Under the pieces are notes generated by a model. It did no database searches. It was not told the DNA's origin and was given only the letters and a program-made list of their open reading frames with translations. From Kiritimatiellia bacterium (GTDB lineage Bacteria; Verrucomicrobiota; Kiritimatiellia; CAIVKH01): 64,000 nt of DNA. Shown here piece after piece: positions 8,748 through 21,884 of the stretch. The DNA lies in assembly GCA_035327305.1 (NCBI GenBank), contig DAOLDL010000004.1, forward strand, positions 12,180 to 76,179. Reading direction: 5' to 3'. Within the stretch, counting starts at the first letter, position 1. The number at the start of each line of letters is the position of its first letter. A program made the translations under genes and the position numbers.

Positions 8748-10295
8748 ATGATTAACAGGTTTCATTCTTATACGATACTTTTCACGGGTGGAATATTCCT
8801 GTTGTGCAGTTACATGGCACACGCCGGCAGTATATCCGGCATGGTAACCCGGGACACGGAGGAACCCGTGGAAGGAATTACCGTTATAGCACAACGACAG
8901 GAGGGACTGCTTATTTTCCTGCCGATTATATCACATACCGACGAGTATGGAATCTATCAATTCACCAATCTGGCCGGGGGCACGTATAGCATTCAATTTA
9001 TCGATGAAACGCACAGGGGTTTTGCGAGCGTTTACTACGATCAGGTAACGGAAAGTTTTTTGGCAACGTTAATTCCGTTGGTTGCGGGAACTTCGGTTAC
9101 CGGAATTAATGCGGTGATGACGCCGGGCGTTCGTATATCAGGCACTGTTACCGATTGGGCCGGCAACGATCCCCTCACCAATATACTCGTTCGCGCCTAT
9201 CGAAAGCTTGGTGATGATGATTGGAGCGCTCTTTATATCGCATACACCGATGCCGACGGTAAATACAACTTGAGGGGAATGCCCTCCGGCACGTTTCGCA
9301 TCAAATACAGCGACCCTTCCTCAACGTATGCTTATCAATTTTATGATCAGGTATCGTCATTTGAAGATGCAACGGACATTGAACTTGAGTCCGGCCAGGA
9401 GGTGTCGGATGTGGACGCTATATTGGTTTCAGGATCGCGAATTGAAGGACGTATCACGGAAACGGACGCCGCCACGCCTATTTCCAACGCGATCGTGTCG
9501 GTGTATGCATGGAACGGTTCCTGGTGGGATACCGTCTCAATCACCGAGTCGGATTCCAACGGAGAATATTCCGCGGGCGGATTGCCCCATTCCGGCGAAT
9601 TTCGGGTGGGTGCTCAAGATTACTCGGGAATGTATCTGACTGCTTACCATGTCGATGCGGAAACGGTGAATAATGCAACCAGCTTGTTCATTACCAACCA
9701 CGTTGTTCTCACAAACATCAATCTGGCGCTAATGCCTGCCGCCAGAATAGAAGGCGCCATAGATCTTGCCGATTCCGTTCCCCTCACCGGCTTCTGGAAG
9801 ATTTCATTATATCGGCAAATAGATTTCGGGCTGGGTAGTTCTTGGTGGATACCTGCCTTCACGCTATTCAGCCCATCGGTCGGCACATACAGCATCGGAG
9901 GAATAACTCCGGGTTCATACCGGGTTGGAGTGACCCATGTGGACGACACCTATTATCCATCCTTCCATGACGGAGTCGATAAAGTTGAAGACGCGGTGGA
10001 TATTGATTTTCTTCCCGGTGAAACAGTAGCCGACATTGATTTCATAATGCGACTGCGCTCCCCGGAGTTGTTGCAACCAATGCACATCATAGACTTGTCC
10101 GATGGAACCCCTGTTCAATGGGCCAGCAAACCAGGCCTTTTCTATGCCATAGATCGCACCACCAACCTGCAGTCCGGGTTTATCCGCATTCAGTCCATGA
10201 TCCCCGCGACGCCTCCAGAAAACAGTTATATGGATGAATCGGGAATTACAGAAAGCCCTTTCTTCTATCGGATTGTAATTGAAAACGAACCATAA
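8748..10295 (+). CDS. Secreted protein with 4-5 tandem carboxypeptidase-regulatory-like (CarboxypepD_reg/Cna-B-like) beta-sandwich repeats
   Basis: Signal peptide followed by recurring G(S/R)ISGxVTDxxGxPLxxxxVxAY modules, e.g. SISGMVTRDTEEPVEGITVIA, RISGTVTDWAGNDPLTNILVRAY, RIEGRITETDAATPISNAIVSVYAW. Confidence 0.55.
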   Translation: MINRFHSYTILFTGGIFLLCSYMAHAGSISGMVTRDTEEPVEGITVIAQRQEGLLIFLPIISHTDEYGIYQFTNLAGGTYSIQFIDETHRGFASVYYDQVTESFLATLIPLVAGTSVTGINAVMTPGVRISGTVTDWAGNDPLTNILVRAYRKLGDDDWSALYIAYTDADGKYNLRGMPSGTFRIKYSDPSSTYAYQFYDQVSSFEDATDIELESGQEVSDVDAILVSGSRIEGRITETDAATPISNAIVSVYAWNGSWWDTVSITESDSNGEYSAGGLPHSGEFRVGAQDYSGMYLTAYHVDAETVNNATSLFITNHVVLTNINLALMPAARIEGAIDLADSVPLTGFWKISLYRQIDFGLGSSWWIPAFTLFSPSVGTYSIGGITPGSYRVGVTHVDDTYYPSFHDGVDKVEDAVDIDFLPGETVADIDFIMRLRSPELLQPMHIIDLSDGTPVQWASKPGLFYAIDRTTNLQSGFIRIQSMIPATPPENSYMDESGITESPFFYRIVIENEP

Positions 10296-12456
10296 ACACG
10301 TTTGCGGACAGGAAAATACGGTCATTATCTTTATGAAAAATATCTTTCAAAAATTTGGAAACCGGCGCATTGCTTTCATTGCCGGATTTTTGGCCATGAT
10401 CATCATCACAGGTTGTGTGACCCGCCAAACGCCACTCGAACCTGCCCGGACATCTCTCGGTGTCGATTCACGGGATGGCACCGAAATCGAGGCGGCTTTG
10501 CACTGCTTACTGAACCGGGACCTGCGAAAATTTAAACGACTTGTTCCGACACGCGCCGAGGCAGATATCCGGTTGTTGCATGGCCTGACTTATCTGCATT
10601 ATGCCGTAGATACCGATCAGGAAAATTTTGTGGAGTACTTGGCAGGCTTGGGCGTATCTCTAAATGCCCGGGATTATCATTATCAGTGGACCCCACTGCA
10701 CATCGCCGTGCGCCGGGAACATCCGAACATGGTTCGAAAGCTGTTGGCTCGCGGCGCAAACCCATCCTTGGCTGACCGCCATGGCTGGATGCCGTTGCAT
10801 CATGCCGCTTCGCTGGTCAGCGAGCCGGTTTTATCGGCATTGATTGAAGGCGGGGTTCCCCTGGAGGAAGCTTGCTCGGGTCGGTGGCAGGGATACCGAG
10901 CACTTCACATTGCGGCAAGTCATGGCTTTGTAAACAACGCCAAAGTCTTGCTGGATGGAGGCGCTGACATTCATGCCATCACCACCGAGCTTGAGGAAAC
11001 CTCCCTTCTGATCGCCGCGCGCAGAAATCATGCCCCCATGGTAATGTTTTTACTTAGCCGCGGCGCGGATGTTACGGATGTCAATCCGAGAGCGCGAAGC
11101 GCTCTCCACCTGGCCGTGTCTTCAGAAGACCCAGCCATTATTGAATCCCTGCTTAGCTACAAAGCAAACCTGGAGGCCAGGGATAAGCATGGCGAAACTC
11201 CGCTCCTGACCGCCGTAAGACTTGGCAAGCTGGGATCCATCAGCTTGCTTCTGGATCGCGGCGCGGATATGGATGCGCGCGGTCGCGAAGGTGAAACGGC
11301 CGTCGCTATCGCCGCGGAAAATGGGCATGCAGATATCATACGTTTTCTGGCGGCGCGTGGAGCTGACATTGACGCTGGTGACGATATCGGACGGACGCCA
11401 CTGATCGGCGCGGCGGCACGCAACCACCTCGAAGCAGTCCACAGCCTGATCGAATTAGGCGCTGATGTTCAAAGACGGACAAAAAACAGTCATGACGCAT
11501 TGTATTATTCCATATTGAAAGCAAGCCCGGACATTATTGATCTGCTTATTCAACATGGCGCAAATGCAACAAACACCTATGGAGTAATAAAGTGGACAGC
11601 CTTGCATTCCGCCGCCTGGGATAATCGAATTGACCTGGTTGATACCCTTCTGAAACATGGCGCTGATATTGAGGCGGGAGAAATCAGCGGTCAGCGCCCT
11701 TTAATCCTTGCCGCCCGACGCCAACACGAAGAGATGATCGCCAAACTGCTGGAAGCCGGAGCAGACCCCTACGGCGCCAGCGTTCAAGGATTGACCGCAT
11801 GGCACTATGCCAAAATGGCAGGCCTGGAAAACTCGATTCAGCGCATCGAAGAAGCGGGCGGCCCGCCACCGGAATCACTGGAACTGGTTCGTGTTTATTT
11901 CGAACTGTACCAACCGGAAGCCAAAGAAGTGTTGCTTGCCGGCCAATTCAACAACTGGGGATCTCAACGAATCCCGTTGGAGAAAAAAGATGATGGCTCA
12001 TGGTATGTAGAGGTGGACGTTTTCAATACCAATTATGGCTATAAGTTTATCGTGGATGGGCAATGGATCACGGATCCTGAAAATCCGAAAACATGGACGG
12101 ACCGCGGATACGGTTCGGTCAATTCATCCTTGATACCCTCCGAGCGATTGGTTGAAAACTATATTTCGCGTGATCAACGCAGTCCATCCGCAATCAAGGT
12201 CATTACGTTTCATTACACGAATAGCGCCGCCCGCCGCGTTCACCTCGCGGGTGAATTCAATGGATGGAACACTTCAAGTCTGCCTTTGACAAAAAATGAC
12301 CAGGGCATTTGGACGCGGGAAGTCAGGCTTTCGCCCGGTGAATATGGGTACAAATTCATAGTCGATAACGACTGGATAGCAGACCCCGCAAATGAACTCA
12401 CCAAGGAAGTGGCTGGCGCCATCAATTCACTGATCCGGATCCCCGAAGACATATAA
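10279..12456 (+). CDS. Lipoprotein with ankyrin repeats and two C-terminal CBM48/AMPK-beta-type glycogen-binding domains
   Basis: Probable true start MKNIFQKF...IIITGC (lipobox) at ~10332. About 10 ANK repeats (TPLHIAV..G.......LL..GA). Two copies of VxFxxx...AKEV.LAGxFNxWxxxxxPLxKxDDGxWxxEVxLxxGxYxYKFIVDxxWixDPxN. Start coordinate as in the ORF track. Confidence 0.7.
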   Translation: MKTNHKHVCGQENTVIIFMKNIFQKFGNRRIAFIAGFLAMIIITGCVTRQTPLEPARTSLGVDSRDGTEIEAALHCLLNRDLRKFKRLVPTRAEADIRLLHGLTYLHYAVDTDQENFVEYLAGLGVSLNARDYHYQWTPLHIAVRREHPNMVRKLLARGANPSLADRHGWMPLHHAASLVSEPVLSALIEGGVPLEEACSGRWQGYRALHIAASHGFVNNAKVLLDGGADIHAITTELEETSLLIAARRNHAPMVMFLLSRGADVTDVNPRARSALHLAVSSEDPAIIESLLSYKANLEARDKHGETPLLTAVRLGKLGSISLLLDRGADMDARGREGETAVAIAAENGHADIIRFLAARGADIDAGDDIGRTPLIGAAARNHLEAVHSLIELGADVQRRTKNSHDALYYSILKASPDIIDLLIQHGANATNTYGVIKWTALHSAAWDNRIDLVDTLLKHGADIEAGEISGQRPLILAARRQHEEMIAKLLEAGADPYGASVQGLTAWHYAKMAGLENSIQRIEEAGGPPPESLELVRVYFELYQPEAKEVLLAGQFNNWGSQRIPLEKKDDGSWYVEVDVFNTNYGYKFIVDGQWITDPENPKTWTDRGYGSVNSSLIPSERLVENYISRDQRSPSAIKVITFHYTNSAARRVHLAGEFNGWNTSSLPLTKNDQGIWTREVRLSPGEYGYKFIVDNDWIADPANELTKEVAGAINSLIRIPEDI

Positions 12457-12562: not shown

Positions 12563-13957
12563 CTACGCCAAGGCATGGGTCTCGATGTATTTCCGGACAG
12601 CTTTCACATCGTTGGGCAGGGTCACACTTCGAGTCGGGGCATCGCGCAGAGCTTCCAGCGCCGGATGCCGCGCGATGTCTTCACCGATGGCGGAGTCGAT
12701 GGCTTGCGCAAACTTGGCGGGATGCGCAGTGGCGAGGCAAATCATCGGTTCGGCTTCATCCAGATGCTGTTCGGCCACATGGACGCCCACGGCGGTATGC
12801 GGGTCGAGCAGGTATCCGTATTCCCGATAATATCTTCGAATAATGGACATGGTTGACGCGGTGTTGCCCACGCCTGCGGCAAACAACGGATCGACCGGCT
12901 CACCTGATTCAACCGGTACGGTCAAACGTCCCGTTTTGTTGAACGAGTTCATCATGCTCCGCAAGACTTCCGCGTCTCGGCCGACGCGATCAAATAAATA
13001 GCGTTCGAAATTGCTGGCCACTTGAATGTCCATGGATGGGCTGATGGTGGGAACCACTTCGCCTTTGCTGTACTCTCCCCGCGCGAAAAAGCGGGCGAGG
13101 ATGTCGTTTTCATTCGTGGCCAACACCAACAAAGAAACCGGCAACCCCATTTTTTTCGCATAATAGCCGGCCAGCACATCGCCAAAATTTCCGGTTGGAA
13201 CGGCAAAGCGCACCTTTTTTGCGCCGGCTTGATTCAACACATAAAGTCCGGCGGAAAAATAATAAACAATTTGCGCCATGACGCGCGCCCAGTTGACGGA
13301 ATTGATCGCGCCCAGAGAATATTTTTCCTTAAACGTCACATCCTCAAACAACGTCTTCATGATGCGCTGTCCGTCGTCAAATGTCCCTTCCAACGCAATG
13401 TTGAAAACATTGGCGTCCAGCACCGAAGTCATTTGTTTTTCCTGAAGCGGAGAAACGCGTCCCTTGGGATGCATGATGAAAATATTCATTCGATCGCGAC
13501 CGGCCACGCCATGGATGGCCGCGCTACCGGTATCCCCGCTGGTGGCGCCAAGGATGTTCAACTTATGATTTTCCTTGCCGAGGTAATACTCAAAGAAATT
13601 ACTTAGGAACTGAAGGGCGATATCCTTGAAGGCAAGGGTCGGGCCATGAAACAACTCAAGAATCTGGATCTGGCCAACCGGAATAGCCGGCGCGATTTCA
13701 GGATGGGCAAACGGCGCGTAACTTTTCTCGATGAGATGCCGCAGATCCGCCTCCGGCATGTCGACAAACAGCTTCATGATTTCAAACGTGATGTCCTGGT
13801 AGGAAAGCGTCGCCCAATGATCCAGTTGATCGCGGACATCGGGTATCCATTTGGGCACCAAAAGGCCGCCATCGGGAGCAAGCCCGGTCATGACCGCCTG
13901 TTCAAATCCCATTTCCGGCGTCAAACCACGGGTGCTGATATAAGTCATCGATTTCAT
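12563..13957 (-). CDS. thrC: Threonine synthase
   Basis: Typical ThrC N-terminus (YISTRG...LAPDGGLLVP), a PLP-lysine region and a 464-aa length. Confidence 0.88.
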   Translation of the reverse strand: MKSMTYISTRGLTPEMGFEQAVMTGLAPDGGLLVPKWIPDVRDQLDHWATLSYQDITFEIMKLFVDMPEADLRHLIEKSYAPFAHPEIAPAIPVGQIQILELFHGPTLAFKDIALQFLSNFFEYYLGKENHKLNILGATSGDTGSAAIHGVAGRDRMNIFIMHPKGRVSPLQEKQMTSVLDANVFNIALEGTFDDGQRIMKTLFEDVTFKEKYSLGAINSVNWARVMAQIVYYFSAGLYVLNQAGAKKVRFAVPTGNFGDVLAGYYAKKMGLPVSLLVLATNENDILARFFARGEYSKGEVVPTISPSMDIQVASNFERYLFDRVGRDAEVLRSMMNSFNKTGRLTVPVESGEPVDPLFAAGVGNTASTMSIIRRYYREYGYLLDPHTAVGVHVAEQHLDEAEPMICLATAHPAKFAQAIDSAIGEDIARHPALEALRDAPTRSVTLPNDVKAVRKYIETHALA

Positions 13958-14012: not shown

Positions 14013-14834
14013 TTACTGCGTGTTAAAAAAGCTTCCATCCAGATGGATTGCGTTTTTATCCATGGATTGCGGGAGGGTCAATCGGCCCAGATCGTGCAAA
14101 CAGCGTCTGCGTATGAGGTCGGCGGTTGACGTAAAGCTCCCGTCCATGGATTCAAGATACACTGCGGCTTCGTCACCAAACGAGACTACCGCGCGGGCGG
14201 CGGTATTGCGAACCGTGAAAACGGGATCATCAAATGCTTCGACCAAAGCAGGCAAGGCTTTGGTGTCACCTATGTCGCGCAAAGCATTTGCCGCAACGAT
14301 CCGGAGCCGCTCGCCGCCATCGACCAGCCATTTCTCCGCATGCGACCGCGCTTCGGGTACTTTCCATTTTCCCAGTGTTCGCAACGCCGCACCCCGGGTC
14401 TGCTCTTCTTCCAAGTGCGGAAACAGTCGGTCGGCATGTTCAGTGGCCTGGTGAAAGCCGAGAAAGAAGATGGCAACCCGCCGGGTTTCAATCCGGTCGT
14501 GATCGATATACGCCAGCAACGCGGGAACGATCACATCCGAAGGAAGTTCCAACACCCATTCCATAACCAGCACCTGCAACATCACCCGGTCGCCATGAAT
14601 ATGGGCCATGGCCGCGTGAAGGGAATCCGGCATACGTTCTTTCAGTTCTTCACGGGCGACCCGCTTGGCTTCACGGCGTTCCGGGGTGTTGCCGTAACGG
14701 GTGGCATCATAAAGAAGATCTTCGAGGGAACGGGCAATGGCAAAACTGGAGCAGAACAGAATAAACAGAAAGAGGATATAACCGAGATGCTTGTTACTCA
14801 TGTCCGGTATCCTCTTTGTAATCATAGACGACAC
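14013..14834 (-). CDS. Secreted HEAT-repeat (PBS-lyase HEAT-like) protein
   Basis: Signal-like N-terminus (MSNKHLGYILFLFILFCSSFAIA). Repeated R..A..AL...GD..A.P.L...L.D....VR..A..AL HEAT-like units. Confidence 0.55.
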   Translation of the reverse strand: MSSMITKRIPDMSNKHLGYILFLFILFCSSFAIARSLEDLLYDATRYGNTPERREAKRVAREELKERMPDSLHAAMAHIHGDRVMLQVLVMEWVLELPSDVIVPALLAYIDHDRIETRRVAIFFLGFHQATEHADRLFPHLEEEQTRGAALRTLGKWKVPEARSHAEKWLVDGGERLRIVAANALRDIGDTKALPALVEAFDDPVFTVRNTAARAVVSFGDEAAVYLESMDGSFTSTADLIRRRCLHDLGRLTLPQSMDKNAIHLDGSFFNTQ

Positions 14835-16719
14835 CGTACAGCGGGCGCAACGTGATCATGCTGTTGGAGAAGCCGCCGCTGTAGATGTCCGCTCCCGCCA
14901 AATCAATCAACAAGGCCAGGCTTCCATAATCGCGAAAGCCGCCGTTGTTGCCGATGCCTTGCGCGCCATCGCGTTGACGACTGAAATACGCATCGTTACC
15001 TGTGCGATCGACCAGCAACGCGAAGGCATTATTAAGCGCACGCCCCTGGGCATGATGATCCGCCGTGTAGGTGTCATCACCCTGATGGTCAAACAACATG
15101 CCCACGGAGTAATCGTGCGCCGCACCTTGGGCCAGGATGTAACCGCTGTAAGAATCGTTGCCCCACGCATCGGCCAGCAATCCGAGGCTCATGTGTATGC
15201 CACACCCCTGCCCATACTGATACATTGAGTAGCGATCATGACCGCCGCCATCGAGTAGAAACCCTGCGGAATAATAATAGCTGACGCCTTGCGCATAAAT
15301 ATCGCCGATGTAGATATCGTTGCCGGACAAGTCGATCAACGATGCCACGCCACCACCAGCATGCGGGCGCATGCCGATGGAGAAGCCCTGTGAAAGTGAA
15401 AGGTATCTCTCATCGTTTCTTTCGTGATCGAGACGGCGGTTGCCCGCAAGATACCGGTCATTGCCCGCGCGATCCAGTAGCATCCCCCACCCCTTGACGC
15501 CGGCAAATCCCTGTCCATAAAACCCGACGTCATAGACATCGTCGCCTGCGTGATCGATCAGAAATCCGAACCCGACCATCCCGGCGCCCTGTCCTATCGC
15601 GTGGCCGCGATACTGGTCACTTCCACTAAAATCCTCCAACCACGCTCCGCCAAACAACGCCGCTCCGGCGCCGACAAACGCCGACTCATAACGGTCGTCA
15701 CCGGATGTATTCAACACAACGGCCAGCCCCCACAGCGCCGAGCCGGCACCCAACAGGCCCTCTTCATGAAAAACATCATCGCCACCCAAATCAATGATCG
15801 CGGCCATGCGCCGGCCCTCAAGTCCGTTGGCCGCGCCGACGCCATTCCGATAGGTGTCACTTCCTCCCGGATCTATGATCAATAAAGCGGGGCCTTCGTA
15901 AGCATCATCACCCATGGTGCCAATTATGATGTGTCCCCAATGACTTTCGCGAATCAAGGGTGAATCCGGCCATTCTTCGATGGCGGTCACTTCGTTGCGA
16001 ATATTGAGCACTGCGTGGTAAAAAAGATGAAAGGAACGATATAGACCAGGTAGATCAACTTGATTCACCAGATCAAGCCAGCGAAGGGATGCGTCCGAGC
16101 CGTCAAGTTGTCGCGCCTCTTCTTCAATGCGATCCAGCGCCTCTTCAGAAATCCCCGCCTCAAGCAAAACGTTGCGATGCACTTCGTTGTCCGCCGACTC
16201 GAAGGTAGAAGCGAGAATGGATGCCGATAAGTAGATGCGGTCCTCAAGGGACAGATTGCCAAACGAAGCCTCCAACATTTCGTCGATCTCCTCCACATAA
16301 ACAAGAAATCGATTCACCAGGGAATCCCATCCGGCAAAAGGTTTGTCATGTGGCTCGCCCGATGCTCTTGCCAGACCGACATCCAGCTCCATCAGCTCCG
16401 CGCCGATGCTCCACCACTTTTCCGGATTGTCGCTTTCTGCGGCGGTGTAGAGTGCATCAGCATGACCGGGTAATTGCCAGGGATCGTTTAATGTGTTGGT
16501 GATCCAGCCAAGTGTCCAGAGAGGTTTGCCGTGATCTTTCTCGAATCCGGCATCCGACGAGGTCATGCCCAGCGTATCCAATGCGCGCTCAACATGATCA
16601 CGAACATGATCGGGATACAGGGGGATCAGCGGAGCGGGGTCGCCATACACCTTGCCCGAGCCGACCAACCAGATCGTGAACATGGCAACGAAAGAAGCGG
16701 TGGCTTTGTAAATCTTCAT
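14794..16719 (-). CDS. Secreted beta-solenoid protein with ~11 tandem ~25-aa 'LxDxxGNDxY......QGxG' repeats
   Basis: Signal peptide and an alpha-rich N-domain (~270 aa). The repeats then run: AAIIDLGGDDVF.., AVVLNTSGDDRY.., FLIDHAGDDVYDVGFYGQGFAG.., MLLDRAGNDRY.., ASLIDLSGNDIY.., FLLDGGGHDRY.., LLADAWGNDSY.., MLFDHQGDDTY.., ALLVDRTGNDAY.., LLIDLAGADIY.. The 3' end overlaps the HEAT-repeat gene by 41 nt. Confidence 0.6.
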   Translation of the reverse strand: MKIYKATASFVAMFTIWLVGSGKVYGDPAPLIPLYPDHVRDHVERALDTLGMTSSDAGFEKDHGKPLWTLGWITNTLNDPWQLPGHADALYTAAESDNPEKWWSIGAELMELDVGLARASGEPHDKPFAGWDSLVNRFLVYVEEIDEMLEASFGNLSLEDRIYLSASILASTFESADNEVHRNVLLEAGISEEALDRIEEEARQLDGSDASLRWLDLVNQVDLPGLYRSFHLFYHAVLNIRNEVTAIEEWPDSPLIRESHWGHIIIGTMGDDAYEGPALLIIDPGGSDTYRNGVGAANGLEGRRMAAIIDLGGDDVFHEEGLLGAGSALWGLAVVLNTSGDDRYESAFVGAGAALFGGAWLEDFSGSDQYRGHAIGQGAGMVGFGFLIDHAGDDVYDVGFYGQGFAGVKGWGMLLDRAGNDRYLAGNRRLDHERNDERYLSLSQGFSIGMRPHAGGGVASLIDLSGNDIYIGDIYAQGVSYYYSAGFLLDGGGHDRYSMYQYGQGCGIHMSLGLLADAWGNDSYSGYILAQGAAHDYSVGMLFDHQGDDTYTADHHAQGRALNNAFALLVDRTGNDAYFSRQRDGAQGIGNNGGFRDYGSLALLIDLAGADIYSGGFSNSMITLRPLYGVVYDYKEDTGHE

Positions 16720-17252
16720 GAATTGAAAAGTACGTCATACCATAAATACATGGTCATGCCCAGCGCCGCGCAGGTTTTTACAAACATGACCCAGAGCCTG
16801 GCCCAAACCGCGCCGCGGGCGATACGTGCGGCTTGCAGATCCTGCTTCAATCGGGCGCGTTCCACCCAGTAGGCGAAAAGAAAACTGCCAAGCAACATTC
16901 CCAGGATACTGCTGATGATTGGAACCGGAGCGAAGCTTCCAACAATCATCCCTAAAATGCCGCCAAACAAAGCGGCCCACCCGGCTCGCATCGATCCGCC
17001 GCGTTTCGTAATGCCGAGATTGCCGGCAAAGAAATCAAAAACCTCCAATGCGGCCGAGAGCGCGAAAAACGCCCCGGCAACCCACCATCCCGGAGCGCCG
17101 TCCGGTCGGCACCAGATCAAGATGACGGACGCGCCCGCAACCAGCCAAGTGCCGGAAAAGGCAAACAGGGAAACAAGAATGCCCGACAGACACAGAAGAA
17201 CGGCGGCGGCATGACCCAACCACCAGCCCGACTGCTGAAGCAAGGATTCCAC
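16716..17252 (-). CDS. DUF456-like small polytopic membrane protein
   Basis: 178 aa with 4 predicted TM helices and Gly-rich helices (GSMRAGWAALFGGILGMIVGSFAP). 4-nt overlap with the downstream repeat-protein gene. Confidence 0.5.
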   Translation of the reverse strand: MESLLQQSGWWLGHAAAVLLCLSGILVSLFAFSGTWLVAGASVILIWCRPDGAPGWWVAGAFFALSAALEVFDFFAGNLGITKRGGSMRAGWAALFGGILGMIVGSFAPVPIISSILGMLLGSFLFAYWVERARLKQDLQAARIARGAVWARLWVMFVKTCAALGMTMYLWYDVLFNS

Positions 17253-17267
17253 GCGTGACGGTTATGA

Positions 17268-18206
17268 TCAGTCCACCGTGTGAATGATAAACCCCGGCTC
17301 GATGCCGGAGTAGATATTCAGCCGGGACTTCTCGAGGATTTCCTTGATTTGATCGGCATCCAACTCTGTCTTCAGCATCGGAACTTCGATGCGCGTGTCT
17401 TTTTCCAGCAGGATGCGCTTGGAAACGTCACGAAAGCCGGGTTTGCCGATCGTAATGGTGTGATCACCTTTGTATATCTCAAAATCCTGAATCGGCGTGG
17501 TGCCAATCAGCATGCCGTCAATTTCGAGCAGTGCCGGGTCGGCGGTGGTGGAAACGGAAAGTTTCACGATCGGCCTGTTTCTGAATTCATCCTGCCGGCG
17601 GACCAGTGCGTCGCGGATGACGGGGATGGTTTCATCCATGGCGCCTTCCATCAGCAAGTAGACATCGTCTTCACCAAGCGTGGTTTTTACGTTATCGGTT
17701 TGCCGGAATCGACGCGAAGCCGCGCCATCAACGGCGGCGAGGACGGAACCGTCGCGGGTATCCAGCGCCTCCAGCGCCACACGCACGGTGAAATCATCAA
17801 GATACGCCGTATATCCTCCTTGATGCACGGAGGAACGGCTGGAGGATATGGTCAGCAGACTGCCTCGCAATACGACATCGGCATTCAATTGTTGCGCGGC
17901 CCGCAAGAAGGAAGGCTTGGCTTCGGTCTCCTTGCTGAACTTTTCCATCTGGGTGAAAAAGTCGCGGCGATCAATCAGACGGAACCCCTCTTTTCCGGCC
18001 AATTTTTTATTCAGGATAAACGCTCCCTTTTCCGCCATGACTGCGGTGGACAAAGCAACCGCCGGAACGTAGGACGGCAAAGCGCCGGCCCGGTTTTCAA
18101 AATCCAACACAACCACCCGGAAAGAATCATCGGAGCGGGCGTTTCCGATGAAAACCAGCATTAAAAGCGCGATCATTTGTTGCATGTATTTCATTGGCCA
18201 CCTCAA
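17268..18206 (-). CDS. Secreted protein with CsgG/LpoB-like N-terminal domain and C-terminal PEGA domain
   Basis: Signal peptide. SFRVVVLDFENRAGAL is typical of CsgG-like domains. C-terminus IDGMLIGTTPIQDFEIYKGDHTITIGKPGFRDVSKRI fits the PEGA consensus. Confidence 0.5.
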   Translation of the reverse strand: MRWPMKYMQQMIALLMLVFIGNARSDDSFRVVVLDFENRAGALPSYVPAVALSTAVMAEKGAFILNKKLAGKEGFRLIDRRDFFTQMEKFSKETEAKPSFLRAAQQLNADVVLRGSLLTISSSRSSVHQGGYTAYLDDFTVRVALEALDTRDGSVLAAVDGAASRRFRQTDNVKTTLGEDDVYLLMEGAMDETIPVIRDALVRRQDEFRNRPIVKLSVSTTADPALLEIDGMLIGTTPIQDFEIYKGDHTITIGKPGFRDVSKRILLEKDTRIEVPMLKTELDADQIKEILEKSRLNIYSGIEPGFIIHTVD

Positions 18207-18302
18207 TCGTTTATTGTTACATATGCGGCTGTAAGTTTGACGCCGCCATGCCGATATTATTCAAAATCAGAAATAACGCCATCAGATAAGCAATCGACCG
18301 CC

Positions 18303-21029
18303 ATGAACCAATCGACAAGCCCCCGGCCCAGCATCATCAGTCTATTCAATGGCGACAAACACTGGTATGCCCTGTTTATCGTGGCTTTGGCGCTGGTATT
18401 CAACCTTGCCCGCACCGCGCCCGATATTATTCCGGGTGAATCCGCCCAGTTGGTCGCGCAACATGCCGGTCATGACGTATTTGCCCCCATGTCACACGTC
18501 GCCTGGGGATGGGCAGGTCGACTTTTCGAATTTATTCCCGTGGGGAATCATGCATTTCGCTGGAATCTTTTGAGCGCCGTTGCGGGAGCCGCCGCCTGTG
18601 GAATGGTATTTCTGTTGACCAGGCGTCTCATGGGACGAAAGGATGATAAACTTTTATTGGGCGGCGACCTTTATGCATACCGGAATCTGGCCGGCCTGGT
18701 CGCAGGACTCCTTTTGGTTTTTTGCCAACCGCTTCATATTGTTTCGACCATGGCAAACCCCGCCACCTTTGAACTATTACTGCTACTTGTTTCCATCTGG
18801 TTGCTGGCCCGGTTTCATGACACCGGGCACTTGCGGTTCGGCGTTGGAGCCATGGCATTATTCGGGGCCGTCATCACTCAATATGCATTCGCAATCATGC
18901 TTGCCCCCTTGTTTGGCATCATGATGCTATACGTCACATGGCGCAAAAATCATTTCCGGCCGCCATCACTGACTAGACTATTACTGGCATTTACGGCCGG
19001 GTTGTCGCTATTTCTGGTGATTGCCCTGTTGTTCATGCAAAAACCCGGATACCAGTGGGCGGAATTAGACGGAATCGGCCAGGTTTTATGGTTTATGGCC
19101 CGGGATCTTTATGCGGAAATCCGGGTTGCGACACCACGAATTGCCATCATCCTGGTCGTTATTTACAGCCTTCTGCCTTTTATATGTGTGGTCATCATGT
19201 CAAAGCAGATGACCATCAGCTATTTTATCCTGATACTCATTTGCGCCTTGTTGAGCGCCTTGTTGTTCTTGAACTTCCGGTTCGCTCCGTGGCCCATGTT
19301 CGGTTTTCGCCCTCTATTGATTGCACCTTATGTGATTGCGGCGGCCTGGAGCGGATGCCTCGTGGCTTATGTGATGGGACTCATCAAATCCGCATGGTTA
19401 TTTCGATTCCACTACAACCGTATCAAATGGATACAGCCGACACTGTCTGTTCTGTGGCTGGCACTGGCCGGCACCCTGATCCTTGCTTCGGGTTGGAAAA
19501 CCGTTCGCAACGAAGGCGCTTCATCAACTAGGGGAATAGCGAAATATGCCGGATATATGGTCAACCAGTTGGACGACAACATGTGGATTGTTGTCGATGG
19601 GCAATTGGAGCCGGTTCTTCGCATCAAATGCGCCGAGATCGGAAGAAATCCCCTGATCATTTCCAGTAGCCGCATACATCATCGTCCCTATCTGAATGCT
19701 CTCGCGCATCAATTAAACAACGAACGACTTGGCTCCATGGCCGAAATGGGGCTTATTCCTTTAATCCGGGAACAACTCGACCACCCCGAAGGGCCGGAAA
19801 AGATCATCGCCGTGGCCGGAGATCCGGGCATTCTGCGTTTTGTCATCGGTACTGCCTGGCCCGACCGGACCATCTACACAAGTGAAAAACCGAATGTGGA
19901 TGCCATGAATTGGGCTGAATATATGGAAAACCTGCGTGCGTGGTGGCGGCATCTCCCGATCTCGAAGGAATATGGCCCGTTCAACGAACTCATCAAGCGA
20001 CTCCACATTCAAAGCGCGCGAATCGCCAATGATACCGGCATCTTTTTAGAGGAAAACGGCAAGCATGACTTCGCCCGCGAGGCATTCCTCGAGGCGATTA
20101 GAATTCACCCGCAAAACCTTTCCGCTCATTTGAATTTGCGCGGGCAATTACCCAATGGCGAGTCAGCCGATTGGCTTGAAGAGGATATCGAACGCTTATC
20201 CGCGATGTGGCGAGGTCGAGCCACACTCGCGCAAATCATGGATGTACACGGGTTAATTCGCCATGACGCCGCGATCGAAACCGTTGATCAACGGTGGGGG
20301 CGCACCGATCCAGTTAGCCGACTCGACGAAACCATCCTTCAGCTTTTACAGCTTGAGGATGAAGAGGCGTTCGGTTTAGCCATGACAATAAGCAATAACG
20401 ATAGTGGCGCCAAATTGGCGATAGCCCGCATAGTCGCCGGTAAAAACCGGCATGTACTTGCCCGGAAAATCCTCAACTCAATAGACGCCAAAGACGATTT
20501 TCAGCAAAGTGTGATCTTGGAACTGGCAAATCTCGACATACAAATGGGGTTCCGGGATCGCGCCTACCAGACACTTTCCGCCATTCCGGAGACGGAAATC
20601 AGCGATCCGCGTATTCTTATCCTGCTAGCCAGCCTGACTGTGGATTCCGACCCGCAAAAATGCGACCAATACCTTGGCCGGCTTGAAAATTACCCCAACT
20701 TGTTGCCCTCGTTAGTGTTACCTATCGCCCGAATTCTTGAGTCACGACAAAAACCGGAAAAGGCCATTCGCCATCTTGCCTATCTTACGGCCCTGCAACC
20801 ATTTAATCGGGATGCAATACAAATGATTATCCGACTTCATCTGGATCAACAGGATATTCCATCCGCCATTACCTATGCAAAACAGCTTTTTACCATTGAA
20901 TCACACAATCCTCTGGCCAATGCCGCATTGGCATTACATTTGGAATCGAGGGGAAATCTCCCCGCGGCGGATAAGGCGCGTAGAATCGCTTTATCGGGCA
21001 ATCCCTTATTATCAATATATTTTGAATAA
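18303..21029 (+). CDS. Polytopic membrane protein (GT-C/PMT-like, DUF2723-type N-domain) with C-terminal TPR repeats
   Basis: Likely start MNQSTSPRPSIISLF. The track ORF starts at 18177. About 11 TM helices with an Asp-containing first loop, then a ~450-aa TPR-like helical region. Confidence 0.55.
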   Translation: MNQSTSPRPSIISLFNGDKHWYALFIVALALVFNLARTAPDIIPGESAQLVAQHAGHDVFAPMSHVAWGWAGRLFEFIPVGNHAFRWNLLSAVAGAAACGMVFLLTRRLMGRKDDKLLLGGDLYAYRNLAGLVAGLLLVFCQPLHIVSTMANPATFELLLLLVSIWLLARFHDTGHLRFGVGAMALFGAVITQYAFAIMLAPLFGIMMLYVTWRKNHFRPPSLTRLLLAFTAGLSLFLVIALLFMQKPGYQWAELDGIGQVLWFMARDLYAEIRVATPRIAIILVVIYSLLPFICVVIMSKQMTISYFILILICALLSALLFLNFRFAPWPMFGFRPLLIAPYVIAAAWSGCLVAYVMGLIKSAWLFRFHYNRIKWIQPTLSVLWLALAGTLILASGWKTVRNEGASSTRGIAKYAGYMVNQLDDNMWIVVDGQLEPVLRIKCAEIGRNPLIISSSRIHHRPYLNALAHQLNNERLGSMAEMGLIPLIREQLDHPEGPEKIIAVAGDPGILRFVIGTAWPDRTIYTSEKPNVDAMNWAEYMENLRAWWRHLPISKEYGPFNELIKRLHIQSARIANDTGIFLEENGKHDFAREAFLEAIRIHPQNLSAHLNLRGQLPNGESADWLEEDIERLSAMWRGRATLAQIMDVHGLIRHDAAIETVDQRWGRTDPVSRLDETILQLLQLEDEEAFGLAMTISNNDSGAKLAIARIVAGKNRHVLARKILNSIDAKDDFQQSVILELANLDIQMGFRDRAYQTLSAIPETEISDPRILILLASLTVDSDPQKCDQYLGRLENYPNLLPSLVLPIARILESRQKPEKAIRHLAYLTALQPFNRDAIQMIIRLHLDQQDIPSAITYAKQLFTIESHNPLANAALALHLESRGNLPAADKARRIALSGNPLLSIYFE

Positions 21030-21146: not shown

Positions 21147-21884
21147 ATGAAGTCTTTTATATCAGGTCTTATGGCGGCTATGCTTATCGGCACCGCACCG
21201 GCAATGGCAATCGTCTTCAATGACGCAACGGGTGATATCGATGCCGGCATTGCTACTGGCGGTGGTACACTGGATATCGTTTCCATGGAAGTGGCAAACA
21301 CTCTCGCCGACATTACGTTCACATTGACCGTAAATGGAGATATTTCTGCCACTGATTGGGGTAACTTCATGATCGGCATTTCCACGCCGGGCGCTCCCGG
21401 CGCTCCGACCGGCAATGGTTGGAATCGTCCGATCAATTTGAGTTCTGCCAATGGCTATATGAATCACTGGATTGGTTCATGGGTCAACGGTGGCGGCGGA
21501 TCTCAACATTGGGTCTACACTGGAAGCGGTACGGAAGGCGGCACCGGCGGCAATTGGGGTGGACCATCAGCTTTGGCTGGTTTTTCCTTGAATGCAGGCG
21601 CTCAAAGCACCATCACCTATACCCTTACCTTGGCATCTCTTGGTTTGGGCATCGGCGACACCTTCTACTTTGACGCTTATACTTCAGGTAGCGGTGGTAC
21701 TGATAGCGCGGTTGACGCTCTTTCAAACCCGAACGTTTCAATCACCGCATGGGATCAAGCTTACACATCCGACGACGCAGTTACCGGATTGAGCTCCTAC
21801 ACGGTTGTTCCCGAGCCTTCCTCAATCGCCTTGCTCGGACTCGGCGCGTTGTTGTTTGGTCGTCTGTTCCGTCGGCGCGCATAA
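21147..21884 (+). CDS. PEP-CTERM sorting-domain secreted protein (Gly/Thr/Ser-rich)
   Basis: Signal peptide and a low-complexity G/T/S-rich body. Canonical C-terminus VVPEPSSIALLGLGALLFGRLFRRRA (PEP motif, TM helix, Arg cluster). Confidence 0.8.
   Translation: MKSFISGLMAAMLIGTAPAMAIVFNDATGDIDAGIATGGGTLDIVSMEVANTLADITFTLTVNGDISATDWGNFMIGISTPGAPGAPTGNGWNRPINLSSANGYMNHWIGSWVNGGGGSQHWVYTGSGTEGGTGGNWGGPSALAGFSLNAGAQSTITYTLTLASLGLGIGDTFYFDAYTSGSGGTDSAVDALSNPNVSITAWDQAYTSDDAVTGLSSYTVVPEPSSIALLGLGALLFGRLFRRRA

Follow-up and report, generated by a model that had tools for sequence, protein, structure and literature searches.

The gene that we call REP, carried by the minus strand at 14,794 to 16,719 of the window (the whole 64,000-nucleotide stretch of a Kiritimatiellia contig analysed here, whose numbering is used throughout), encodes a secreted 641-aa protein built on a 27-residue repeat, and we lean towards the view that a class of extracytoplasmic β-solenoid not described before is built from this repeat. 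In the reading that we find best, REP would be a solenoid braced by Ca2+ outside the cytoplasm, with a functional site and partner proteins. Taken as a whole, with the Ca2+ part argued by analogy, we hold this proposal slightly better than even. What is known here is the fold class, that of the β-helix; what is new is the 27-residue repeat, which is described by no protein-family library.

The open reading frame, taken from the ORF list and already delimited by an earlier sequence-only reading, was borne out as a minus-strand gene for 641 aa. In the protein collection its product is a 100% match to the NCBI hypothetical protein PJ991_01805 from a Kiritimatiellia MAG and has at least 1,589 homologs, and no paralog of REP was found within the window. 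The protein opens with a probable Sec signal peptide, read from the sequence (aa 1-26, MKIYKATASFVAMFTIWLVGSGKVYG; 16,642 to 16,719), composed of a basic n-region, a hydrophobic core, and small residues ahead of the predicted cut. In the AF2 model this segment is a lone helix of lower pLDDT, and a variable hydrophobic segment opens all REP homologs. It is followed by an all-α domain that is family-specific and has no solved analogue (aa 27-256; 15,952 to 16,641). The C-terminal 380 residues form the solenoid, made of 12 rungs and a half-rung cap. The cap (aa 258-277, ...IIIGTMGDDAYEGP; 15,889 to 15,948) was placed by the repeat register and has DSSP strands at 264-266 and 273-275. Then come rungs R1-R5 (aa 278-410, 26-27 aa each; 15,490 to 15,888), R6 (aa 411-457, 47 aa including a 20-aa β-hairpin insertion; 15,349 to 15,489; conservation 0.78), R7-R10, which are the best-conserved part and a putative functional site (aa 458-565; 15,025 to 15,348; conservation 0.75-0.82), and finally R11 (35 aa) and R12 with the C-terminal cap strands (aa 566-633; 14,821 to 15,024), all on the minus strand. 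R1 is a conserved opening rung, D-P-G-G-x-D-x-Y-x-N-G-x-G-A-A-N-G, also present in P0188, P0192, and P0239, and three times in P0171.

Along the protein the motif D/N-x-x-G-x-D is repeated in 12 places, namely aa 283, 310, 337, 363, 389, 416, 463, 490, 517, 544, 571, and 606, with spacings of 27, 27, 26, 26, 27, 47, 27, 27, 27, 27, and 35 residues and with insertions of 20 aa in rung 6 and 8 aa in rung 11. The period is 26-27 aa and not about 25 as first proposed, and the repeat covers aa 258-633 (14,821 to 15,948) instead of the whole ORF; every repeat segment quoted in the sequence-only reading is found in the translation, its list of rungs having missed the first full one (aa 278-304) and the cap (aa 258-277). 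Autocorrelation of aa 256-641, scored with BLOSUM62, was strongest at a lag of 27 residues (z = 8.3), and its harmonics stood at lags 54 (z 5.2) and 81 (z 3.6), while the top z over all lags in 1000 composition-preserving shuffles was 4.4. The same autocorrelation detected no periodicity in the N-terminal 225 aa. The rung consensus is x-x-x-L-x-D-x-x-G-(D/N)-D-x-Y-x5-G-Q-G-x-A-x3-x, and over 99 rungs from 11 family members, conservation reached 100% for G9, 97% for D11, 95% for Y13, 94% for D6, 74% for Q20, 73% for G21, and 73% for D/N at position 10. The repeat noticed earlier is real, and its periodicity holds up under proper alignment. Tandem Repeats Finder detected no tandem repeat at the DNA level, so the array is ancient, without recent DNA-level duplication.

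The structure prediction that had been suggested as a check was carried out with AF2, and the repeat region of the resulting model (pLDDT 93.7, pTM 0.93) is a solenoid whose strand pattern is identical in every rung. With the regular rungs and parallel strands stacked along the axis of its predicted structure, REP belongs to the β-solenoid fold class. In this predicted fold, one 27-residue rung makes one turn of the solenoid: β1 runs over positions 1-6 and closes on the invariant Asp, the five-residue turn x-x-G-(D/N)-D follows, β2 starts with x-Y, and the G-Q-G corner leads to a two-residue β3. The Asp geometry, the handedness, and the in/out orientation are deduced from the register, AF2 modelling the chain without Ca2+. 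When the model was compared with the PDB by Foldseek, no significant match was obtained (best E 1.4), and the closest structural neighbour, at a similarity that is not significant, was the Ca2+-bound helix 3P4G. Searches of the PDB by sequence with the full-length REP profile and with the 27-residue unit profile gave no relevant match, the repeat profile retrieving no PDB sequence at E <= 10, RTX proteins included, and hhalign against 3P4G returned a probability of 0.3%, meaning that sequence homology is undetectable.

3P4G is region IV of MpAFP/MpIBP, an ice-binding adhesin from Marinomonas primoryensis, and forms a right-handed β-helix. Like REP, it is extracytoplasmic and stacks about 12-13 rungs into a single solenoid without interruption, with one acidic Gly turn per rung and a core G-N-D-x-hydrophobic after an Asp (D-A-G-T-G-N-D-E-V-Y-I compared to D-L-S-G-N-D-I-Y-I in REP). 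In contrast, its rungs have 19 residues instead of 27, the upstream Asp lies nearer by one residue in REP, the 19-residue repeat x-G-T-G-N-D-x-u-x-u-G-G-x-u-x-G-x-u-x is not found in REP, and no Thr/Asx ice-binding array is evident there. Moreover, 3P4G forms one domain within an RTX adhesin of 1.5 MDa secreted by a T1SS (PMC3492233), whereas REP is a Sec-type protein of 641 aa with an α-domain and a HEAT partner.

The proposal of Ca2+ bracing comes from the acidic turn. The solenoid contains 39 Asp, 11 Glu, 2 Lys, and 19 Arg (net charge -29), and each rung has two near-invariant Asp, both in one turn. D6-x-x-G9-x-D11 followed by x-Y-x has the spacing of one turn of the RTX nonapeptide (XUXGGXGXD; HemolysinCabind, PF00353; serralysins, lipases, and CyaA), and successive turns would clamp Ca2+ between stacked Asp carboxylates and backbone carbonyls, so that the solenoid would fold and stiffen only after Sec export, like RTX β-rolls and the MpAFP RIV helix. 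In RTX proteins, the turn GGXGXD supplies the Ca2+ ligands, and carboxylates stacked 4.8 A apart are unstable without Ca2+ (PMC6891781). In the motif D-x-x-G-x-D-x-Y-x, the spacing of Gly-7, Asp-9, and the hydrophobic U is kept, the G-x-D-x-U part being present in 12/12 REP rungs; both repeats are strongly acidic, Asn or Asp is common ahead of the Asp, and the Asp carboxylates would be stacked in REP as well. Some relatives join the repeat to an enzyme (subtilase fusions), as serralysins do with their rolls. The sequence-only reading had found the spacing different from that of Ca2+- or carbohydrate-binding solenoids; this stands for 3P4G, in both turn length and position of the upstream Asp, and fails for the RTX core G-x-D-x-U, whose spacing is identical. 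Other features separate REP from RTX proteins. There is one turn per three-sided rung of 27 residues against two per two-sided roll of 18, the tandem nonapeptide is absent (Gly-4 is replaced by Asp in 94% of rungs and Gly-5 is variable, with Gly-7 at 100%, Asp-9 at 97%, and U being Tyr at 95%), and the PF00353 model gives no match to REP at E <= 1. As for secretion, REP and its relatives, by reading of their sequences, start with a signal-like hydrophobic segment, a probable signal peptide in REP, instead of ending with a C-terminal T1SS signal, and the REP cassette contains no T1SS genes.

The loss of the first two glycines of the RTX turn speaks against Ca2+. A residue with a side chain in place of Gly-4 would collide with the coordinating carboxylate (PMC6891781), and therefore any Ca2+ site in REP must differ in detail from that of RTX proteins. 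Position 7 also speaks against it: Arg occupies it in 18% of the rungs and His in some, and their charge could offset part of that of the Asp row in the absence of metal. These observations favour a metal-free structural solenoid, which we regard as possible but rather doubtful, in which Asp would act as Asx-type caps hydrogen-bonded to the backbone NH of the tight Gly turn, like the Asp of sialidase Asp-boxes, the charge would be offset by nearby Arg and His (frequent at positions 7 and 10), and the protein would be a passive rigid spacer or an adhesin-like scaffold. The repeat indeed matches no Ca2+-binding repeat by sequence and occurs in giant surface proteins with Ig domains, in which it could plausibly act as a spacer. 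However, 24 near-invariant carboxylates on one edge, with a net charge of -29, would be hard to stabilise without counter-ions (argument of PMC6891781), the closest structural neighbour is a Ca2+-bound helix, even if the Foldseek similarity is not significant, and a passive spacer leaves an invariant cluster of non-periodic His, Asp, Arg, and Tyr unexplained.

This cluster lies on rungs 6-9. R6 contains the conserved stretch S-x-S-Q-G-F-x-x-G-x-R-P-x-x-G-G-G, with Q444 and R451, and R7-R10 add the non-periodic residues Y481, Y502, H509, H535-D536, and N563-N564, which are absent from the generic-repeat protein P0188. Specific to the REP family are Q444, R451, Y481, Y502, H509, and D536. Q444, G445, F446, G449, R451, and P452 are invariant in HEAT-fused and PDZ-type relatives, and the cluster residues are kept at 29-38% identity in TA06, Phycisphaerales, Skermanella, and Verrucomicrobiae. 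They are lost only in a Nitrospira pair, which argues against a functional site. Judging from this conservation, the Gln/Arg/Tyr/His/Asp cluster is likely a functional site: the job of the REP family would fall to Q444, R451, Y481, Y502, and H509 paired with D536 on the adjacent rung, which would probably bind or process an envelope ligand, their orientation being deduced. A Ser480-His509-Asp536 catalytic triad was considered and is excluded because Ser480 is not conserved, Gly taking its place in 5/8 aligned sequences.

A functional site made of non-periodic residues on a few consecutive rungs, putative in REP, is also found in right-handed parallel β-helix proteins of the PbH1 type (Beta_helix PF13229, NosD PF05048; AlgG/AlgE4 epimerases, PL6 lyases, tailspikes), which share with REP a three-stranded solenoid and a periplasmic or extracellular location. 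PbH1 rungs are unlike those of REP in having about 22 residues instead of 27 and no acidic Gly turn in each rung. PbH1 domains co-occur with the repeat in some proteins, as separate blocks, and neither PF13229 nor PF05048 matched the repeat block in REP or in 66 family members.

Could REP be a β-helix enzyme, of the lyase, epimerase, or esterase type, whose substrate is an acidic polysaccharide of the envelope? Its active site would lie on rungs 6-9, with His/Asp as acid-base, Arg neutralising a carboxylate, and Tyr assisting, and HEAT or PDZ would be the targeting subunit. This idea specifies a function and is compatible with Ca2+ bracing; we consider it unlikely. Q444/R451/Y481/Y502/H509/D536 are invariant on consecutive rungs across phyla, and mannuronan C5-epimerases use a set of Tyr, His, Asp, and Arg on a β-helix. 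Several unrelated loci have genes for envelope glycans close by (Wza/Wzz, LpxK/KdtA, a Wzx-type flippase with WbqC, GT-C transferases), but these neighbours are not conserved (LpxK and GT-C in three distinct contexts each among about 90 loci). Moreover, no CAZy-type Pfam family is matched, the loss of Ser480 removes the Ser-His-Asp triad, and the orientation of the cluster comes from the register. The most far-reaching combination is speculative to the same degree: the repeat would define a widespread new class of Sec-exported, Ca2+-dependent β-solenoids, which would be the three-sided equivalent of the RTX β-roll and would have arisen independently of type I secretion, and the REP family would be a new β-helix enzyme that, together with a dedicated HEAT or PDZ adaptor, remodels a polymer of the envelope in Verrucomicrobiota and other phyla, its active site (His-Asp/Arg/Tyr) lying on rungs 6-9.

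It is highly improbable that the repeat is a divergent member of a described family (RTX/HemolysinCabind, the MpAFP-type 19-mer, PbH1, or DUF4097) and nothing new. Its G-(N/D)-D-x-hydrophobic core is RTX-like, its fold class is the β-helix, and 2 of the 66 members have a sub-threshold match, the nearest obtained, to Peptidase_M10_C, the serralysin RTX C-terminal domain (E 0.27). Against this, Pfam and NCBIfam gave no match to REP at E <= 1, a range in which the HMMER speed filters may lose matches above E ~0.1, and none that was significant among the 66 members; in variant architectures nothing fell over the repeat block, the Beta_helix/NosD matches of relatives lying outside the 27-residue block. 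Likewise, the period is 27 and not 9, 18, or 19, hhalign finds no homology to 3P4G, and an N-terminal signal peptide replaces the C-terminal T1SS signal. DUF4097, to which a repeat HMM might have led back according to the sequence-only reading, was not among the matches at E <= 1 of REP or the 66 members, and the novelty then claimed stands because no known family was recovered in either. In the literature, we found no account of the repeat or of a HEAT/β-helix pair in Kiritimatiellae. Finally, the region is rich in Gly (71 Gly/384 aa) and Asp, and a compositional artefact or a non-coding ORF, already barely conceivable, is refuted by the homologs and their conserved synteny, the lag-27 signal far above that of the shuffles, and the confident AF2 model.

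The repeat profile matched 3,957 protein clusters (50% identity) from bacteria and an archaeon. Carriers, annotated as hypothetical, belong to Verrucomicrobiota, TA06, Planctomycetota, Nitrospira, Alphaproteobacteria, and at least one archaeon, and their architectures include 21 near-identical rungs, subtilase fusions, and a 3,581-aa Ig-domain protein. N-terminal signal-like segments are present throughout the family, one member of which is annotated as a conserved exported protein. Since the periodic residues D6, G9, D11, Y13, and Q20-G21 recur in unrelated architectures, they look like framework, probably ion-binding, and would supply the ion sites, the stack of Tyr residues, and the corner of Gln and Gly. 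The earlier idea that the array is a functional ladder, and more than structural scaffolding, is not supported in that form, the family-specific residues being non-periodic. Defining the repeat would annotate about 3,950 hypothetical clusters at once. If the Ca2+ hypothesis is true, RTX-like Ca2+-gated folding would extend to Sec-exported three-sided solenoids, which would help to explain how proteins fold outside the cytoplasm and would offer a scaffold for design.

Next to REP lies a gene for a secreted HEAT-repeat protein (14,013 to 14,834, minus strand; 273 aa from GTG 14,834, or starting from ATG 14,801; Pfam HEAT_2 1.6e-24), whose start overlaps the end of REP. A HEAT gene is found directly downstream of REP in 74/79 related loci with room for it, and the two are fused, in the same order, in P0074, P0076, P0116, P0121, and loci L063 and L072. 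From this arrangement, REP and the HEAT protein may interact physically. A protein-interaction module accompanies the core, namely HEAT in Verrucomicrobiota, as neighbour or fused, and an N-terminal PDZ in TA06 and others. The near-universal pairing, fusions included, points to an unstudied envelope module in Verrucomicrobiota, whose envelope biology is poorly known. Apart from HEAT, REP loci show no consistent link to any gene of known function. Three candidate links were rejected: one to LPS (LpxK, KdtA, heptosyltransferase, and Kdo kinase lie near two lineages, a link that is not general, with three distinct contexts in about 90 loci), one to GT-C/TMEM260-like glycosyltransferases (only three of about 90 loci), and a divalent-cation theme (a GDT1 transporter in one genome only, and DUF456/YqgC without an assigned function in the Bacillus Mn paper). 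Promoter and terminator scans gave sites no more numerous than in shuffles. Upstream, a DUF456 membrane protein gene (16,716 to 17,252, minus strand; Pfam DUF456 3e-20) has a stop that overlaps the REP start by 4 nt, and the start/stop overlaps around REP suggest translational coupling. This gene adjoins REP in 22/75 loci, which form a Kiritimatiellia/Lentisphaerae subset. The first gene of the local cassette (17,268 to 18,206, minus strand) encodes a secreted protein with a CsgG-like N-domain (CsgG match 3.8e-4, just under the cut-off) and PEGA (Pfam 6.6e-10), and such a gene adjoins in 20/75 loci.

The ORF at 14794..16719 (-) codes for a 641-aa repeat protein (REP), in which a D/N-x-x-G-x-D motif occurs 12 times, from aa 283 to 606. 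The spacings between motifs are 27, 27, 26, 26, 27, 47, 27, 27, 27, 27, and 35 residues, and the period is therefore 26-27 residues rather than the ~25 given by the sequence-only reading. The repeat observation itself was confirmed, all the segments quoted there being present in the REP translation, and its period and extent had to be corrected. The array consists of 12 full rungs (one solenoid turn each) and an N-terminal half-rung (aa 258-277), with insertions of 20 residues in rung 6 and 8 residues in rung 11. The autocorrelation maximum (BLOSUM62, aa 256-641) was at a lag of 27 residues (z = 8.3; further peaks at the harmonics 54 and 81), against z <= 4.4 at every lag in 1000 composition-preserving shuffles; the N-terminal 225 residues gave no periodicity. 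When conservation was counted on 99 rungs from 11 family members, G9 reached 100%, D11 97%, Y13 95%, D6 94%, Q20 74%, and G21 73%, and position 10 was D or N in 73%. Tandem Repeats Finder detected no DNA-level repeat in the array, indicating that it is old, and no REP paralog was found in the window.

By its sequence, the N-terminus of REP (MKIYKATASFVAMFTIWLVGSGKVYG) is a probable Sec signal peptide. An AlphaFold2 model built with a 66-sequence alignment (pLDDT 93.7, pTM 0.93) placed a helical part at aa 37-244 and, bearing out the solenoid proposed earlier, a solenoid part at aa 255 to 633. All rungs share one predicted pattern: beta1 (positions 1-6, the last residue being Asp), a five-residue turn x-x-G-x-D, beta2 starting at position 12, a corner formed by G-Q-G, and beta3, two residues long (positions 23-24). 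The solenoid contains 39 Asp, 11 Glu, 2 Lys, 19 Arg, and 71 Gly, for a net charge of -29.

On balance, and with modest confidence, we favour a reading in which this new repeat class would build a Sec-exported beta-solenoid, probably braced by Ca2+ and bearing on rungs 6-9 a polar site specific to the family, and in which REP would work in the cell envelope with a HEAT (or PDZ) adaptor. Concerning calcium, 3P4G consists of thirteen RTX-like repeats of 19 residues, wound into a right-handed helix with bound Ca2+ (PMC3492233), and has the rung sequence D-A-G-T-G-N-D-E-V-Y-I where REP has D-L-S-G-N-D-I-Y-I. [quoted passage not shown] Stacking of the carboxylates at 4.8 A makes the fold unstable unless Ca2+ is present, and a residue with a side chain in place of Gly-4 would clash with the carboxylate that coordinates the ion (PMC6891781). 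Like RTX, the REP turn D6-x-x-G9-x-D11, followed by x-Y13-x, retains Gly-7, Asp-9, and the hydrophobic U at equal spacing. Unlike RTX, REP has Asp in the place of Gly-4 and a variable residue in that of Gly-5 so that, given the clash, any ion site in REP would not be a copy of the RTX site. Moreover, REP has one turn unit per 27-residue three-sided rung, whereas RTX has two per 18-residue two-sided roll. Mechanistically the two remain alike, through an acidic Gly turn in each rung, a charge that is extremely negative, and a location outside the cytoplasm, and the Ca2+-solenoid similarity noted earlier holds as a resemblance. A structural solenoid free of metal is a possible reading, clearly less probable than the Ca2+-braced one.

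Conservation was highest in rungs 6-10 (0.75-0.82 vs 0.47 in the alpha-domain). Among separate, HEAT-fused, and PDZ-type members (29-47% identity), Q444-G445-F446 and R451-P452 in the rung-6 insertion are invariant, as are S480-Y481, Y502, H509, and D536; H535 is present in 90% or more of the rows. A second alignment, extended to still more distant relatives, showed Q444, R451, Y481, Y502, H509, and D536 to be retained in Phycisphaerales, Skermanella, TA06, and Verrucomicrobiae, and lost only in two Nitrospira proteins. The latter (P0355 and P0354) are full-length, lack the conserved Q444, R451, H509, and D536, carry a 12-residue insertion in rung 6, and could represent a branch that has diverged in function or become inactive. 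A Ser-His-Asp triad was rejected because S480 was not conserved in this second alignment. None of the family-specific Q/R/Y/H/D residues is present in P0188, a relative built of the generic repeat. The periodic residues, taken for a functional ladder in the sequence-only reading, look like framework, and the function-specific residues are the non-periodic ones. In the rung register, H509 and D536 both occupy position 25 of adjacent rungs, with small residues on either side. From sequence, we infer an exposed His-Asp pair, its orientation included, with Arg and Tyr nearby, as a putative binding or catalytic site. A glycan-acting beta-helix enzyme would be a more specific functional reading, compatible with a Ca2+-braced solenoid; we consider it rather unlikely. 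A loose envelope-glycan theme among the neighbours (LPS-core genes, GT-C transferases, Wza/Wzz, a Wzx-type flippase, GDT1) is not conserved across related loci and carries no weight in our reading.

Searches with Pfam and NCBIfam gave no match to REP at E <= 1, and Pfam gave no significant match to the 66 aligned members, the nearest being the serralysin RTX C-terminal domain (E 0.27, 2 members). The repeat was also tested for membership of RTX, the MpAFP 19-mer, PbH1, and DUF4097, and belonged to none. It is hence new to the family libraries, as had been claimed with DUF4097 as an example of the families to check. Against PDB sequences, the full-length profile found no related entry and the 27-column rung profile no match at E <= 10; Foldseek against the PDB gave nothing significant (best E 1.4; 3P4G at TM 0.37), and hhalign of the family profile with the recovered part of the 3P4G sequence gave a probability of 0.3%. 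Therefore, the solenoid fold class is known, its closest solved relative probably being the Ca2+ helix of 3P4G, and the 27-residue rung itself is without a solved or curated counterpart. That the repeat belongs, in divergent form, to an already known family is very improbable, and an artefact scarcely credible.

REP matches a hypothetical protein from a Kiritimatiellia MAG at 100% identity and has at least 1,589 homologs, none with a Pfam domain over the repeat. When a single genome of each species was scanned with a pattern, relatives occurred in 251 species, the named ones nearly all Verrucomicrobiota sensu lato (Kiritimatiellia, Lentisphaerae/Victivallales, Verrucomicrobiae). A two-rung profile run against 1.84 billion cluster representatives matched 3,957 clusters at E <= 1e-3 and 1,751 at E <= 1e-30. 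Phycisphaerales and cultured Skermanella species are among the named carriers, as is Nitrospira, where the annotation reads "conserved exported protein of unknown function". The family is large and unmodelled, and Ca2+ bracing gives a clear, testable biophysical hypothesis. Several architectures occur: a form of 600-680 aa; fusions of REP to HEAT, 850-1020 aa long; full-length homologs from candidate division TA06 in which a PDZ domain lies at the N-terminus; P0188, whose 21 rungs are near-perfect (xGFLLDxxGxDxYxAGxxGTNGGxxxG); P0171 (3,581 aa, three solenoid blocks plus Ig/fn3 domains), encoded among giant surface proteins; subtilases inserted between rungs, one from a Thermoplasmatales archaeon; and proteins in which the 27-residue repeat is joined by separate PbH1 or PQQ-propeller domains. 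Pfam Beta_helix/NosD matches in relatives lie outside the 27-residue block, and a common cap rung, D-x-G-G-x-D-x-Y-x-N-N-A-G-G, opens each solenoid. These varied architectures and the shared cap indicate that the periodic residues are part of a general, reusable extracytoplasmic scaffold.

P0188 (locus L087, 6001-9540, 1,179 aa) has GTNGG in place of GQG in its 21 consecutive rungs, no Pfam match, and Kelch/fn3/MAM-like surface proteins as neighbours. P0171 (L092, 6001-16746) contains fn3/Big Ig-like domains and is flanked by giant CARDB/Big proteins. Peptidase_S8 is nested in the solenoid at aa 511-753 of P0285 and aa 625-890 of P0290 (the Thermoplasmatales protein), with three rungs before it and 10-13 after, so this protease-in-solenoid form exists in bacteria and an archaeon. 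Contigs binned as Gemmatimonadales (L018) and Candidatus Omnitrophota (L048) encode REP-HEAT 42-48% identical to the Kiritimatiellia protein, which could be mis-binning or lateral transfer.

In the window, REP belongs to a one-strand gene set with overlapping starts and stops: PEGA/CsgG-like (17268-18206), DUF456 (16716-17252), REP, and HEAT (14013-14834), a secreted HEAT-repeat protein. Lentisphaerae and distant Kiritimatiellia also have this four-gene cassette, there in other surroundings. Across 85 related loci, HEAT directly follows REP in 74 of the 79 with room, and REP is preceded by DUF456 in 22/75 and PEGA in 20/75. In Verrucomicrobiae, REP and HEAT form a single ORF (L063, 955 aa; L072, 906 aa), and the HEAT part of fusions aligns to the mature window HEAT protein from residue 36 (P0076) or 34 (P0074). 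This adjacency and these fusions are good comparative evidence that REP and HEAT act together. PDZ-type members have no HEAT neighbour, which suggests that HEAT and PDZ are alternative adaptor modules.

The PEGA/CsgG-like protein (17268-18206 (-)), first cassette gene in a subset of loci, is secreted, with a CsgG-like N-domain (Pfam 20.3 bits vs a cut-off of 20.8) and a PEGA domain; unlike CsgG lipoproteins, it has no lipobox Cys. Divergent from the cassette, 18177-21029 (+) encodes a membrane protein of 950 aa that has a TMEM260-like/PMT_2 GT-C glycosyltransferase domain and, towards the C-terminus, TPR repeats; its gene is found at the equivalent position in L005 and not in other related loci. 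Threonine synthase (12563-13957 (-)) lies immediately downstream of HEAT, as in at least 18 related loci (64-83% identity), a conserved synteny without obvious functional link. In three lineages, PEP-CTERM-anchored proteins are encoded at most a few kb away from the cassette (window 21147-21884 (+), L001 5433-6200, L005 628-1320). Finally, the product of 10279-12456 (+), 725 aa, has a hydrophobic segment at its N-terminus, a long ankyrin run, and two C-terminal CBM48/AMPK1_CBM modules, and this combination of ankyrin with glycogen-binding modules is unusual in a bacterium.
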